DNA of 64,000 bases from Escherichia coli (GTDB lineage Bacteria; Pseudomonadota; Gammaproteobacteria; Enterobacterales; Enterobacteriaceae), in NCBI RefSeq assembly GCF_051903065.1, contig NZ_CP178438.1. The stretch is one strand, 5' to 3'. Of the stretch, positions 3,861 to 62,495 are shown one piece after another (position 1 is the first letter of the stretch; each line of letters starts with the position of its first letter). Below the pieces are notes generated by a model. The model saw only the letters and a program-made list of their open reading frames with translations. It did not search any database and was not told the origin of the DNA. The translations under genes and the position numbers were made by a program.

Positions 3861-3936
3861 TCCTCTGTAGTTCAGTCGGTAGAACGGCGGACTGTTAATC
3901 CGTATGTCACTGGTTCGAGTCCAGTCAGAGGAGCCA
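3861..3936 (+). tRNA. asnV: tRNA-Asn (anticodon GTT)
   Basis: Identical 76-nt tRNA-Asn sequence to the copy at 1452-1527. Confidence 0.93.
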
Positions 3937-7365: not shown

Positions 7366-7498
7366 ACCGACTCCTGATTCAATTGTATGATGGTATTCAT
7401 TGAACAGAACAATGGATCCCCCACCGTTGCTGACCGCAAAACATTTACGCGATTAATACTGCGCGTAATATAATTAAAAATCCAGCATTCTCAATCCA

Positions 7499-7858
7499 TT
7501 ACGAAAGAAGATGGCATTGTGGAATAGCCAGACTTCCTCGTGTTAACGTCCGACAAAATGCGTCATTGACAGCGGTTTCTCTGGAATGACAGATTTCATT
7601 CAGATAATGGATTAATGCTACAGCCCCACCAGCCGGACCAGTCAGTAAACGGGCATTGTGTTCTGCAATCAAAATTACCGTCGTTCCCTCAGAATGAGCG
7701 AGCCATTCTGGTACGGATATCTCGCTTTCAGCTGCTATCAATAGCTGCACTGAATAATCGCTATACGCATCTGATAATGATTGCACAGACCCACCGTTAA
7801 GAGGCTGGAAATCTTGCTGCCAGTCCTCACGGATAAAACCGCAGCCTCTACAGTGCAT
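7499..7858 (-). pseudogene. Unassigned 119-aa ORF in a degenerate region; possibly a remnant of the ancestral cbi/pdu locus, or spurious
   Basis: ORF with ATG start directly upstream of cobU on the same strand; no recognisable motif; in Salmonella this position holds cbiP. Confidence 0.25.
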
Positions 7859-8133
7859 TGTTGGTCAGTGCCTGCGAAGCAGACATTATCGCGCTGGTGC
7901 TTAATGCGGACGCACCGTGGTCACCTTTTTCGCCTGGCTTTATCTCGTCAATGAATCGTCCGATCATTGGAGTAGTCACCAAAGCAGATTTAGCCAGCAT
8001 GGAAGAAATATCTTTGGTGAAAGTTTGGTTACGGGAAGCTGGATCGCACAACGTGTTAGTAACCAGTGCGGTTAATAACAATAGAGTTGCAGAACTTTTT
8101 GCCTTGCTTCATACAGAAGATGTCTGTCGCTAA
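7837..8133 (+). pseudogene. EutP/PduV-family GTPase fragment (C-terminal part only, no P-loop)
   Basis: Translation ...[55 protein letters not shown]... resembles the EutP/PduV C-terminal half; the frame is closed by a TAA at 7834-7836, so the N-terminal Walker A region is missing. Confidence 0.5.
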
Positions 8134-8233
8134 TTTCGATAGGTTATCAGATGGGAATGATGACTGTGATACACAGAAAAGAATCAATGAGCAATGAGGG
8201 TTGCCGGGCAACCCTCATTGAATAAAACAGGAA

Positions 8234-8563
8234 TTACTTCGCTTCGCCGTTTTTCATTTCGCCCATAGCTTTCAGCTTCTTGGAGATATCGCGGCGTTCT
8301 TTGGAGAGCTCGGCATTTTTGATGATGTAATCGTCAACGCGATCTTCATAGTCACCTTTCATGCTAGCGATGATGCCCTGGATTGCTTCAACGCTCATCC
8401 CCGGCTTGATGTAATCACTCAGGTTGTCCAGCAACAGGACGCGCTTCTGGTTGTCACGGATCTTTTTCTCAACGTCCTGAATTTCACGTTGCAGTTTGTT
8501 CTTACGACGGAACAGACGAACAAATTCCAGTACGTCCTGGAATGAAGGCTTGGTAGTTTCCAT
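8234..8563 (-). CDS. yeeX: UPF0265/DUF496 family protein
   Basis: Internal ATG at 8561-8563 gives [38 protein letters not shown]... Confidence 0.85.
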
Positions 8564-9991: not shown

Positions 9992-10465
9992 TTAGTGATG
10001 TTTTGGCTGCACAGCAACATACATTTCGATATCCCAGTACCCATCTTCCGCGCCATTGTTCAAATAAACCTCGAAGCAGGGCTTTGGTAACATTTCATAA
10101 GCACTGTCCTGCAAGAGGCTATTAAAGAACTGATACCAGGGTTTAGCAAAATCATCACCGACTACACGAGCTACCGCCACCGCATACTGACCACCTGAAA
10201 TTTCTGTCAGAATGACGCCCTCACTGTTTTCGGGAAGCGTAAAGTAACCCGGCACCGTCACGACGGTGTCGCAGCGTAATTTTTCGGCGGGTGTTTCATC
10301 TGGATTGTCGTAATAGACAGCAACCCACTCCTTCGGCACAATATTTTTACTATCTACCCACATCATCAACTGCTCAAAACCTTTCTTTACCGTCTGTTCC
10401 CACGGGCCAACGAGATGGAAACCTGCAACGGTACGTTTATCTTCCTGCTTAATCTCGTAGTTCAT
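9992..10465 (-). CDS. sbmC: DNA gyrase inhibitor (GyrI/SbmC)
   Basis: 157-aa [36 protein letters not shown]... Confidence 0.9.
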
Positions 10466-10481
10466 GACGCCTCCATTAATA

Positions 10482-10497
10482 CTGTTTTTATATACAG
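10482..10497 (-). promoter_or_regulatory. Candidate LexA (SOS) box upstream of sbmC
   Basis: CTGTTTTTATATACAG fits CTGT-N8-ACAG, 17 nt upstream of the sbmC start codon. Confidence 0.5.
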
Positions 10498-10583
10498 TAT
10501 AGTTGCAATATTAAAACCACAAGGAATGAGTGTTGATTATGCGAGCAGACTCGCACTCCTGCCAGTCTGCTGCAAAAGAAAGG

Positions 10584-11750
10584 TCAGGCCTTATGGTGGA
10601 AATAATCACTCAGGCGAGAAAACATGCTGCCTTCCCCGACAGATTCCAGGGTAACCAGCGGCCAGTGCGCCACCTGTTTATCACGGTCGTAAAGTTCAAT
10701 TTCCCCTACCCGCTGATGGGCGCTAATTGGCGCGGTGAGCTCTTTACCATCAAGGGTATATTTGGCTTTGATATGTGGAATTTCGGCTTTCGGTAGTACC
10801 ATCCAGAACTCTTGTTCTGTTCCCAGGGCGATATTTTCTTTATCGCCATACCAGATGCGTTCCGTACCGACCTTTTTCCCACGGTGCAAAATTTGCACCG
10901 TAGTAAAGTTTTGTTGCCCCCAACGCAGTAATTTTCTTGCCTCTTCCTCACGACCTTTTGCGCTGTCAGCCCCCATTACCACTGCAATGAGACGACGCTG
11001 CCCATCTACAGCCGAAGCAATGAGATTAAACCCGGCACCAGAAGTATGACCCGTTTTCAGGCCGTCAATATTCATGGTTTTATCCCACAATAACCCGTTA
11101 CGGTTTTGCTGGGTGATACCGTTCCAGGTGAGACTTTTCTCACTGTACATATGATAAAACTCGGGCTCGCCGTGGATGATAGCGCGAGAAAGCACAGCTA
11201 AATCATAAGCCGAGCTATGCTGGCCAGGTGCATCCAGACCATGCACTGTTTCAAAATGCGTATCCTTGAGATGCAGCTTCTCGGCATAGTTGTTCATCAT
11301 TTCAACAAACTGCCGTTGCCCACCGGCAATATAGTCAGCCAGAGCAACACAAGCGTCATTTCCGGAATCAACAATTAAACCACGGCTTAAATCACGTACC
11401 GATACGCGATCGCCCTCTTTCAAAAACATCAGTGAAGAACCGACAAACACCGGATTATCTTTCGCCCACGCATCGCGCCCCACGGTGACAATATCGTCTG
11501 GCGTAATGCGATGACTATCGATAGCACGATCCACGACATAGCCCGTCATCAGCTTTGTCAGGCTGGCGGGATTGCGCTGTTGATGCTCATTACCCGCGGT
11601 GAGGATCTGTCCGGTGGTGTAATCCATCAGTACCCAGGACCCGGCATGAATCTCTGGAGGCTGAGGTGAAAAAGGAATGTTTTCCGCCGCAAAACCAGAC
11701 GATAAGTTAAAAACGAACAAAGAAGCAGCAATAATAAGACGGCGTTTCAA
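10584..11750 (-). CDS. dacD: D-alanyl-D-alanine carboxypeptidase (PBP6b)
   Basis: Signal peptide and the penicillin-binding motifs SLTK, SGN and KTG are all present in the translation; probable TTG start. Confidence 0.9.
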   Translation of the reverse strand: MKRRLIIAASLFVFNLSSGFAAENIPFSPQPPEIHAGSWVLMDYTTGQILTAGNEHQQRNPASLTKLMTGYVVDRAIDSHRITPDDIVTVGRDAWAKDNPVFVGSSLMFLKEGDRVSVRDLSRGLIVDSGNDACVALADYIAGGQRQFVEMMNNYAEKLHLKDTHFETVHGLDAPGQHSSAYDLAVLSRAIIHGEPEFYHMYSEKSLTWNGITQQNRNGLLWDKTMNIDGLKTGHTSGAGFNLIASAVDGQRRLIAVVMGADSAKGREEEARKLLRWGQQNFTTVQILHRGKKVGTERIWYGDKENIALGTEQEFWMVLPKAEIPHIKAKYTLDGKELTAPISAHQRVGEIELYDRDKQVAHWPLVTLESVGEGSMFSRLSDYFHHKA

Positions 11751-11958
11751 CAGCAAACCCTCAGGAGTTTCAAATAGCTGTTCTTTTTACGGAAATACTT
11801 ATGAACTGGCTGGAATAAAGTGCAAGAAAATGTGACTACTCTCTCATTTTTATCTGACATGATCTGTTGCCACTCGCTGCCAAATTGTGGCGCTAAAGCT
11901 GATTAGCACGGTGATATTTGATACTCTGGCAGACAGCAGAAATAACGGATTTAACCTA

Positions 11959-16411: not shown

Positions 16412-16449
16412 GCAAAAAATAACCGACGCTGATGAAACGTCGGTTTTTA
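16412..16449 (-). terminator. Candidate terminator downstream of yeeY
   Basis: Stem AACCGACG...CGTCGGTT with T-runs on both sides. Confidence 0.5.
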
Positions 16450-16531
16450 GTCATTTTTTGACAGCGGCGCATTGTGCCTAAATGGGGGGGAAATGACAAG
16501 AGAATGAGAGGCTTGTCATAATAATTTTTCT

Positions 16532-18757: not shown

Positions 18758-18808
18758 ATGACACGCGTTCAATTTAAACACCACCATCATCACCATCATC
18801 CTGACTAG
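18758..18808 (+). CDS. hisL: his operon leader peptide
   Basis: ATG ACA CGC GTT CAA TTT AAA CAC CAC CAT CAT CAC CAT CAT CCT GAC TAG = MTRVQFKHHHHHHHPD with seven consecutive His codons. Confidence 0.92.
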   Translation: MTRVQFKHHHHHHHPD

Positions 18809-18869
18809 TCTTTCAGGCGATGTGTGCTGGAAGACATTCAGATCTTCCAGTGGTGCATGAACGCATGAG

Positions 18870-18908
18870 AAAGCCCCCGGAAGATCACCTTCCGGGGGCT
18901 TTTTTATT
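18870..18908 (+). terminator. his attenuator terminator hairpin
   Basis: AGCCCCCGGAAGATCACCTTCCGGGGGCTTTTTTATT between hisL and hisG. Confidence 0.88.
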
Positions 18909-27210: not shown

Positions 27211-28377
27211 TTAGTCACTGCCAAAGAGATCGCGGGTGTAGACTTTGTCTGCCACATCCTTAAGCTCTTCTGCCATACGGTTGGAAATAATGACGTCGGC
27301 TTGTTGTTTGAAGGTGGCGAGATCTCGTTCCAGGCGAGAGTTGAAGAATGAGTCTTCTTTCATCACCGGCTCGTATATGATCACTTCAACGCCTTTCGCC
27401 TTGATACGTTTCATAATCCCCTGAATGGAAGACGCACGGAAGTTATCTGACCCGCTCTTCATAATCAGACGATAAATACCCACCACTTGCGGCTTGCGTG
27501 ACAAAATGGCATCGGCAATAAAATCTTTACGTGTGCGGTTAGCATCGACAATTGCCGAAATCAGGTTATTCGGCACAGACTGGTAGTTCGCCAGTAACTG
27601 CTTGGTATCTTTCGGCAGACAATAACCACCATAACCAAACGACGGATTGTTGTAATGGTTGCCAATACGCGGATCGAGACAAACGCCTTCGATAATCTGG
27701 CGAGTATTCAGACCTAAACTTTCTGCATAGCTATCCAGTTCATTAAAGTATGCTACGCGCATCGCCAGATAGGTATTAGCGAAAAGTTTAATCGCTTCTG
27801 CTTCAGTGGAGTCGGTAAACAGTGTAGGGATATTTTGCTTAATCGCGCCTTCCTGTAACAACGCAGCAAAACGTTCTGCGCGTTCTGAACGCTCACCAAT
27901 GACAATACGTGAAGGATGGAGATTATCGTAAAGGGCTTTACCTTCACGGAGAAATTCCGGAGAGAAAATAAGGTTATCGATACCCAGACGTTCTTTAATT
28001 GATTTGGTGAAACCTACCGGAATTGTAGATTTAATCACCATTACCGCGTTGGGATTAATTTCTGTCACATCACGGATGACCGCTTCCACGCTTGAGGTAT
28101 TAAAATAATTTGTTTTCGGATCATAATCGGTAGGCGTGGCAATAATAACGTAATCGGCATTTTTATACGCGTCATACTTATCTGTCGTAGCGCGGAAATT
28201 GAGATCTTTAGTCGCCAGATACTCTTCAATCTCCTTATCAACAATCGGTGACTGCTTCTTGTTAAGCATGTCCACTTTGGCCTGAACGATATCCAGTGCA
28301 ACCACTTCGTGGTTTTGCGCAATCAGAATACCATTTGAAAGACCAACATAACCTGTTCCTGAAATTGTTATTTTCAT
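27211..28377 (-). CDS. ugd: UDP-glucose 6-dehydrogenase
   Basis: [29 protein letters not shown]... Confidence 0.92.
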
Positions 28378-36854: not shown

Positions 36855-36895
36855 TAAATAACGCTACCGCCCCTGGCTTTACAGCTACCAGAGCA
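36855..36895 (-). promoter_or_regulatory. JUMPstart element with ops (RfaH-dependent antitermination) upstream of the O-antigen operon
   Basis: Plus-strand AACGCTACCGCC is the reverse complement of GGCGGTAGCGTT (ops core GGCGGTAG); surrounding CCCCTGGCTTTACAGCTACCA also occurs upstream of wza. Confidence 0.7.
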
Positions 36896-37156
36896 CTGCA
36901 TGCATGTCTACGATGTGACGAGCGTTACCCACTCGCGCTTAACTCGAAAAATTCAAACGCTAATTGTCTTACCAATCCGCTCTGGAAACAAGGAAAATCC
37001 TGGAAAACTTTGACTAAAATCCTATTGCTAACTCGTTGTTATTCTGATTGTTTATATAAAACAACGGCAGGAATATTCGCAACAAATTACTTTCGCCACG
37101 AATCCTCACTGCCGTTATAATTTTCTTATCAACCGTTACATCCGGTCAGATTTTCA

Positions 37157-38050: not shown

Positions 38051-38292
38051 TATTTTCCTACCTCTAAGTGGCTGATAGTGCGTAAATTATTGCCATAGAT
38101 TAGCCAAACGGTATGGCTATATACCAAAGCTTAGTTCCGCATAACTTTGATTAAACCTTGCGATAACACTACACACCATCAGCATCTGGGTTACTCGGAT
38201 TACTCGGAATTCCGCATACTGATAATTTAATCAGTACCTCTTTCCGAATAATCGTAGTCCAACCTGGTCCTTTTTTCTCTGACTCTTCTGCA

Positions 38293-43409: not shown

Positions 43410-43597
43410 GCCTGATGCGACGCTGGCGCGTCTTATCAGGCCTACAAGACCCGAGCACAGAACCGTAGGCCGGATAAGGCGTTCACGCCGCATCCGGCAT
43501 TCAGTGCCTGATGCGACGCTGACGCGTCTTATCAGGCCTACAGGTCCCGAGCACAGAACCGTAGGATGGATAAGGCGTTTTACGCTGCACCCGGCAA
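43410..43597. repeat. REP/BIME cluster (about 4 units) between wcaK and wzxC
   Basis: Repeated GCCTGATGCGACGCTGGCGCGTCTTATCAGGCCTACA... / ...GGATAAGGCGTTCACGCCGCATCCGGCA units. Confidence 0.8.
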
Positions 43598-47923: not shown

Positions 47924-48012
47924 GTCGTTACCCTTTTTCAGGCAATAGTTGGCCCTGACCGAAGCGGCCAATTTTGTTTTTGTCGTTATTTACACCGCGG
48001 TTTCGCATTCAT

Positions 48013-62439: not shown

Positions 62440-62495
62440 TTTCAGGCATCCAGACACGCTACCGCCCCTGGCTTTTTAGCTACCAATACACTGAT
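62440..62495 (-). promoter_or_regulatory. JUMPstart/ops element in the wza 5' leader
   Basis: Plus-strand CACGCTACCGCCCCTGGCTTTTTAGCTACCA; reverse complement contains GGCGGTAGCGTG; about 180 nt upstream of wza. Confidence 0.75.

Follow-up and report, generated by a model that had tools for sequence, protein, structure and literature searches.

The question raised by this locus is whether a short palindrome of the form CTGT-N8-ACAG, lying just ahead of the DNA gyrase inhibitor gene sbmC (gyrI), is a LexA operator (SOS box) or merely resembles one. The window, by which is meant the whole 64 kb stretch of DNA that was analysed, is E. coli chromosome, judging from its sequence. We assign the palindrome to the E. 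coli sbmC/gyrI promoter as its LexA operator, with a probability of roughly 97 %. The features of the gene and its upstream region are:

9992-10465, minus strand: sbmC (gyrI) coding sequence, 157 aa, DNA gyrase inhibitor; an open reading frame that agrees with the RefSeq annotation at 100 % DNA identity
10470-10474, minus strand: ribosome-binding site GGAGG, 4 nt before the ATG, as read from the sequence
10480-10499, minus strand: 20-mer taken as the SOS box (LexA operator), gene-strand sequence TACTGTATATAAAAACAGTA, + strand sequence TACTGTTTTTATATACAGTA
10482-10497, no strand assigned: core CTGT-N8-ACAG palindrome, + strand sequence CTGTTTTTATATACAG
10584-11756, minus strand: dacD, the next gene upstream of sbmC and co-oriented with it

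The start codon of sbmC (ATG, 10465 to 10463) opens a protein with a Pfam GyrI-like domain (2.6e-32), of which 155 of 157 residues are identical to K-12 SbmC and two differ. The GGAGG sits between the box and the ATG and is close to invariant in the orthologue alignment, while the dacD stop codon at 10584 bounds a sbmC regulatory region of 118 bp. As in K-12, four minus-strand genes (tmaR, yeeA, sbmC, dacD) are followed by sbcB, which is encoded on the plus strand. An 801-bp stretch enclosing the box, with sbmC and dacD as its annotated features, is matched in 5418 of 5426 complete E. coli genomes.

Several other features of the window were noted in passing. Two tRNA-Asn(GTT) genes are located close to its start (1452-1527 and 3861-3936), and the cryptic prophage CP4-44, whose place in MG1655 is directly ahead of tmaR, seems to be missing here (window region 7400-8234). 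Rfam matches elsewhere in the window (16412-16486, 18784-18907, 36860-36898, 43468-43538, 47928-47977 and 62455-62493) comprise STnc240 sRNA, a histidine operon leader, two JUMPstart elements, naRNA4 and an algC RNA motif; the JUMPstart pair may be a sign of polysaccharide gene clusters.

The palindrome lies exactly where the original prediction had placed it (10482-10497, + strand CTGTTTTTATATACAG) and its description as immediately upstream of sbmC also holds, the gene being on the minus strand and the 20-mer lying on its upstream side with a gap of 14 nt to the start codon. The first explanation to be weighed is that this is a chance AT-rich palindrome with no regulatory role. The 16-mer pattern itself leaves room for such a view: it occurs once in the 64 kb window, at this site only, against a chance expectation of 0.51 per window, and 38 of 100 shuffled windows contain at least one match. 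The CTGT-N8-ACAG pattern by itself is thus weak evidence, and the signal resides in the full 20-mer. Positions 10480-10499 match the consensus TACTG(TA)5CAGTA at 18 of 20 positions (2 mismatches), both arms, TACTGT and ACAGTA, being perfect, whereas in the 100 shuffled windows no 20-mer comes as close as 3 mismatches to the consensus.

The heterology index (HI) points the same way. The matrix was rebuilt as Berg-von Hippel counts from 18 K-12 boxes (PMC3009722 Table 4), or from 17 with sbmC left out, and the HI was taken as the sum of ln[(n_consensus+0.5)/(n_observed+0.5)]. Read on the gene strand, the window box has an HI of 0.27 when the matrix includes all 18 sites, 0.58 when sbmC is omitted and 0.95 when both sbmC and umuD are omitted; read on the opposite strand it scores about 4 with the rebuilt matrix. 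When each of the 18 known K-12 sites is left out in turn their HI values range from 0.58 to 12.8, the sbmC box being tied with that of umuD(C) for best. The published value for the K-12 sbmC box, which has the same sequence, is 2.8 (Courcelle 2001 values as quoted in PMC11228462), and a working limit of <15 has been used for LexA-repressed genes (PMC11002266). The index against the LexA consensus, whether 0.27-0.95 with the rebuilt matrix or 2.8 as published, therefore falls well inside the functional range, which lies below about 15. For comparison, the lowest HI among 30 first-order Markov resamples of the window is 7.4, with a median best of 11.3, so that a chance origin would have to account for an HI of 0.58 against a random best of 7.4. 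The second-best site in the window has an HI of 9.8. This and other low-HI sites (27721, 38217, 55637 and others; HI 9.8-12.2) are within the range of random sequence; they include weak LexA-like dyads at 27721-27740 (TTCTGCATAGCTATCCAGTT, HI 9.8) and at 38217-38236 (TACTGATTAAATTATCAGTA, HI 10.3).

Comparison with the K-12 promoter shows that the box is already known and ordinary. The MG1655 sbmC box (2081277-2081296) is the same 20-mer, also lies 14 nt from the ATG, and shares with the window box both the GGAGG and the upstream CRP-S site. The two 118-bp intergenic regions differ at 2 bases, both of them flanking the box: position 10478 is A here and G in K-12, and position 10509 is T here and A in K-12. 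In a five-sequence Escherichia alignment K-12 is the sole deviant at 10509 and the sole carrier of G at 10478. The description of the site as LexA-box-like is accordingly borne out both by an HI in the functional range and by identity of the 20-mer to the K-12 box. Box positions 1-19 are invariant among the most divergent of the E. coli copies that were retrieved; position 20 is A or G, and the flanks are more variable. A 50-mer megablast against 5,426 complete E. coli genomes returned 770 exact matches and 3592 at 95-99 % identity; these figures are identity bands only, which miss genomes with scattered flank changes and give no count per box.

The same 20-mer, TACTGTATATAAAAACAGTA, is also the K-12 umuDC box (PMC3009722 Table 4). 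Because the 20-mers are identical, LexA affinity for the sbmC box would be expected to be similarly high. The umuDC box nevertheless serves another gene and promoter, in other flanks, and the CRP-S site is absent from the umuDC promoter in the data examined. Salmonella enterica has a sbmC SOS box at the orthologous position upstream of the gene, present in subsp. diarizonae and arizonae, yet its sequence is different (HI 3.5-3.7 with the rebuilt matrix) and it lies 16 nt from the ATG rather than 14 nt. For S. enterica, induction of sbmC by nalidixic acid and a box HI of 6.32 have been reported (PMC8072944 Table 1).

Function has been documented for the K-12 site. A published list of SOS genes with their own LexA box includes sbmC (PMC6590174), and the gene is UV-induced, with this box upstream (PMC3009722), and induced by ciprofloxacin (PMC11002266). 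At the K-12 site induction by AZT is 5.7-fold and dependence on LexA cleavage is 9.5-fold (PMC11228462 Table 1). The statement in the original prediction that sbmC is known to be SOS-inducible agrees with this published, LexA-dependent induction in K-12. In the present account the sequence, the score, the identity to K-12 and the positional conservation were established here, and the LexA-dependent induction and the CRP/Sxy dependence are taken from the literature. These data also bear on the idea that another protein recognizing the same palindrome, such as a LexA-like repressor of a prophage or plasmid, is the main regulator. The site is chromosomal core DNA found in 5416 of the 5426 complete E. 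coli genomes, and induction of sbmC depends on cleavage of LexA itself (PMC11228462); that explanation can be given next to no weight.

Conservation of the box position was assessed in a footprint sample of 80 Enterobacteriaceae sbmC loci, one genome per species, covering Escherichia, Citrobacter, Salmonella, Enterobacter, Lelliottia, Kluyvera, Klebsiella, Raoultella, Atlantibacter, Leclercia and other genera. The region from -60 to -1 relative to the sbmC ATG contains a site with HI <=12.6 in 77 of the 80 loci and with HI <=8 in 71, the median best HI being 4.2. In five control regions of the same loci, situated farther upstream or within the coding sequence, the corresponding figures are 0-1 of 80 each for HI <=12.6 and 0 of 80 for HI <=8, with a median best HI of about 19-21. 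The distance from box to ATG is 14-22 nt in nearly all loci. A position kept in 77 of 80 species against 0-1 of 80 in the controls is not what a chance palindrome would give, nor is the LexA-dependent induction published for the identical K-12 site (PMC11228462); together with the shuffled-window and HI comparisons, this makes a chance origin improbable in the extreme.

The geometry of the promoter is more conjectural. The features considered are:

10494-10502, minus strand: candidate -10 region, overlapping the upstream half of the box, proposed from the sequence
10517-10522, minus strand: candidate -35 hexamer TTGTGG, with its TTG conserved across genera and a putative -35 role
10537-10558, no strand assigned: CRP-S site, with the core TGCGA-N6-TCGCA at 10540-10555 (TGCGAGCAGACTCGCA), a perfect dyad

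Two -10 elements are candidates. The first is C-TATACT (10502 to 10496), which is sigma-S-like and begins 15 bp after TTGTGG (10522 to 10517); the second is TACTGT (10499 to 10494), 17 bp after the same hexamer. CTATACT presumably fits the sigma-S -10 preference, and hexamers of the TAnAnT type occur in the same register in Citrobacter (TACACT/TATACT), Enterobacter (TATAGT) and Kluyvera (TATACT). The consensus promoter scan called no proximal sbmC promoter on the gene strand, where the hexamers are weak matches. Likewise, no sigma-70 promoter was predicted for sbmC in a published study, in which the response to UV was biphasic (PMC5999292). A tiling-array transcript start, derived from a 100-mer in PMC3009722 Table 8, corresponds to about 10491, inside the box. 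On this evidence the box may span roughly -13 to +7 and would overlap the likely -10 and the transcription start, as is common for operators whose repressor acts by RNA polymerase exclusion. The geometry of any occlusion is provisional, since the exact -10 and transcription start are themselves putative.

A further possibility is that the sequence is mainly core promoter, an AT-rich -10 and discriminator, or else an antisense promoter reading into dacD, and not a repressor site. The half-sites TACTGT and TACAGT do resemble -10 hexamers, and a scan of the + strand finds a promoter-like TTAATA-16-TATAGT across the box. However, the scan gives 3 hits where 1.4 are expected, which is not significant, and conservation across genera falls on the CTGT/ACAG dyad and on no single hexamer. 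In the orthologue alignment these arms are the best-conserved columns of the box, with the spacer and flanks drifting. Moreover, promoter and operator roles are compatible, LexA repressing through just such an overlap. A mainly promoter role, on either strand, is very improbable.

Upstream of these elements, a block at about 10536-10565, some 40 bp from the LexA box, is more strongly conserved in the orthologue alignment than the box itself. It contains the CRP-S site. sbmC has been described as CRP-regulated by a class I mechanism, its induction requiring both cAMP-CRP and Sxy, and the element has been identified as CRP-S (PMC1635313). The half-site TGCGA in the window core has C in place of T, as is required of CRP-S sites, which are 22-bp dyads of the CRP type, and the element at 10537-10558 has this TGCGA core in common with the CRP-S sites of the competence regulon. 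A CRP-type core is kept in 71 of 81 promoters (TGCGA...TCACA in 38, TGCGA...TCGCA in 18 and TGTGA...GCACA in 15), so that 56 of the 71 conserved cores start with TGCGA; the Klebsiella/Raoultella group has the TGTGA...GCACA core rather than the TGCGA type. In the conserved promoters the centre of the core is 76-87 nt from the ATG, and the distance between the CRP-S centre and the conserved TTG of the candidate -35 stays at 25.5 bp. If transcription starts at about 10486, the CRP-S centre would lie at -61.5, which fits the class I mechanism published for sbmC.

Other readings of the conserved block were considered and set aside. As an RNA element it gave only chance lncRNA matches in Rfam, whether at the gathering threshold or at E<=10. 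As a dacD terminator it has no run of T after the hairpin, and the terminator scan made no call. As a sigma-54 promoter it would require a GG-to-GC spacing of 11 but has one of 9. The sequence CTGGCA-18-CATAAT could be a distal sigma-70 promoter, although the conservation is better accounted for by the published CRP-S site.

Three of the 80 loci lack a proximal box (L079, L082 and L085 in the footprint sample), and Rfam gave no match on any of them. In Escherichia sp. MOD1-EC7003 (L085) a short deletion at about 660-700 of the locus removes the box (CATACTGATTGGAGG); the match to sbmC is restricted to residues 1-82, and this gene is probably a decaying copy. In Intestinirhabdus alba (L079) the best box is 166 nt upstream. 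In Klebsiella michiganensis DSM 25444 (L082; locus positions 1-677) an insertion ends exactly at the expected box position, and homology to K. oxytoca restarts just past the box; the other end of the insertion lies beyond the fetched flank. The insertion carries a reverse-transcriptase-like ORF with a YADD motif, of the group II intron type, the ORF being the sole basis of the group II reading.

Rearrangements near the box also occur within E. coli. In strain MSB1_9I (L002, NZ_LR890508.1; 600-2515) an ISL3-like element, ISEc53, with a ClbS/DfsB-family gene is inserted in the middle of the LexA box, one half-site alone remaining beside sbmC. The insertion is flanked by an 8-bp target duplication, TTTTATAT, equivalent to window positions 10486-10493, in the single case examined. 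In strain MS 115-1 (L003; 2572-4700) phage-like genes, among them those for a Gp27-family protein and a HicB antitoxin, replace dacD upstream of sbmC; the breakpoint is upstream of the candidate -35, with the CRP-S site lost and the LexA box kept.

A different arrangement is apparent in a group comprising Klebsiella, Raoultella, Pseudocitrobacter and Pluralibacter (loci L047, L050, L057, L062-L070, L073 and L075-L078), in which the box, at about 620-700 of the locus, is some 13 bp nearer the CRP site. Its distance from the ATG in this group is 20-22 nt, compared with 14-16 nt in the other loci. It seems that the box has moved with respect to the core promoter, the other half-site possibly serving as the -10. 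A tentative and rather doubtful generalization is that across Enterobacteriaceae the CRP(-S) site and the LexA box of the sbmC promoter are retained together as a unit, with the box about 13 bp nearer the CRP site in Klebsiella, Raoultella and Pseudocitrobacter, where TACAGT and not TACTGT may be the -10, and with the AT-rich centre or edge of the box as a recurrent landing site for mobile DNA (ISL3-family in E. coli, group II intron-like in K. michiganensis). If this were true, sbmC would escape SOS control in the strains with mobile-DNA insertions at the box.

For the window itself, a mechanism in keeping with these data would have a LexA dimer occupying the 20-bp box through its two CTGT half-sites. 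Bound LexA would most likely bar RNA polymerase from the promoter, because the box overlaps the likely -10 and transcription start. DNA damage would lead to RecA-stimulated self-cleavage of LexA, freeing the promoter so that the gyrase inhibitor SbmC could be made. cAMP-CRP together with Sxy would activate the same promoter through the CRP-S site about 40 bp upstream of the box.

The significance of the finding beyond annotation is small. The sbmC box is among the strongest LexA boxes of the regulon and has the same sequence as that of umuDC, and the strain most likely keeps the standard SOS control of SbmC, a protector against microcin B17 and quinolone-type gyrase poisons.
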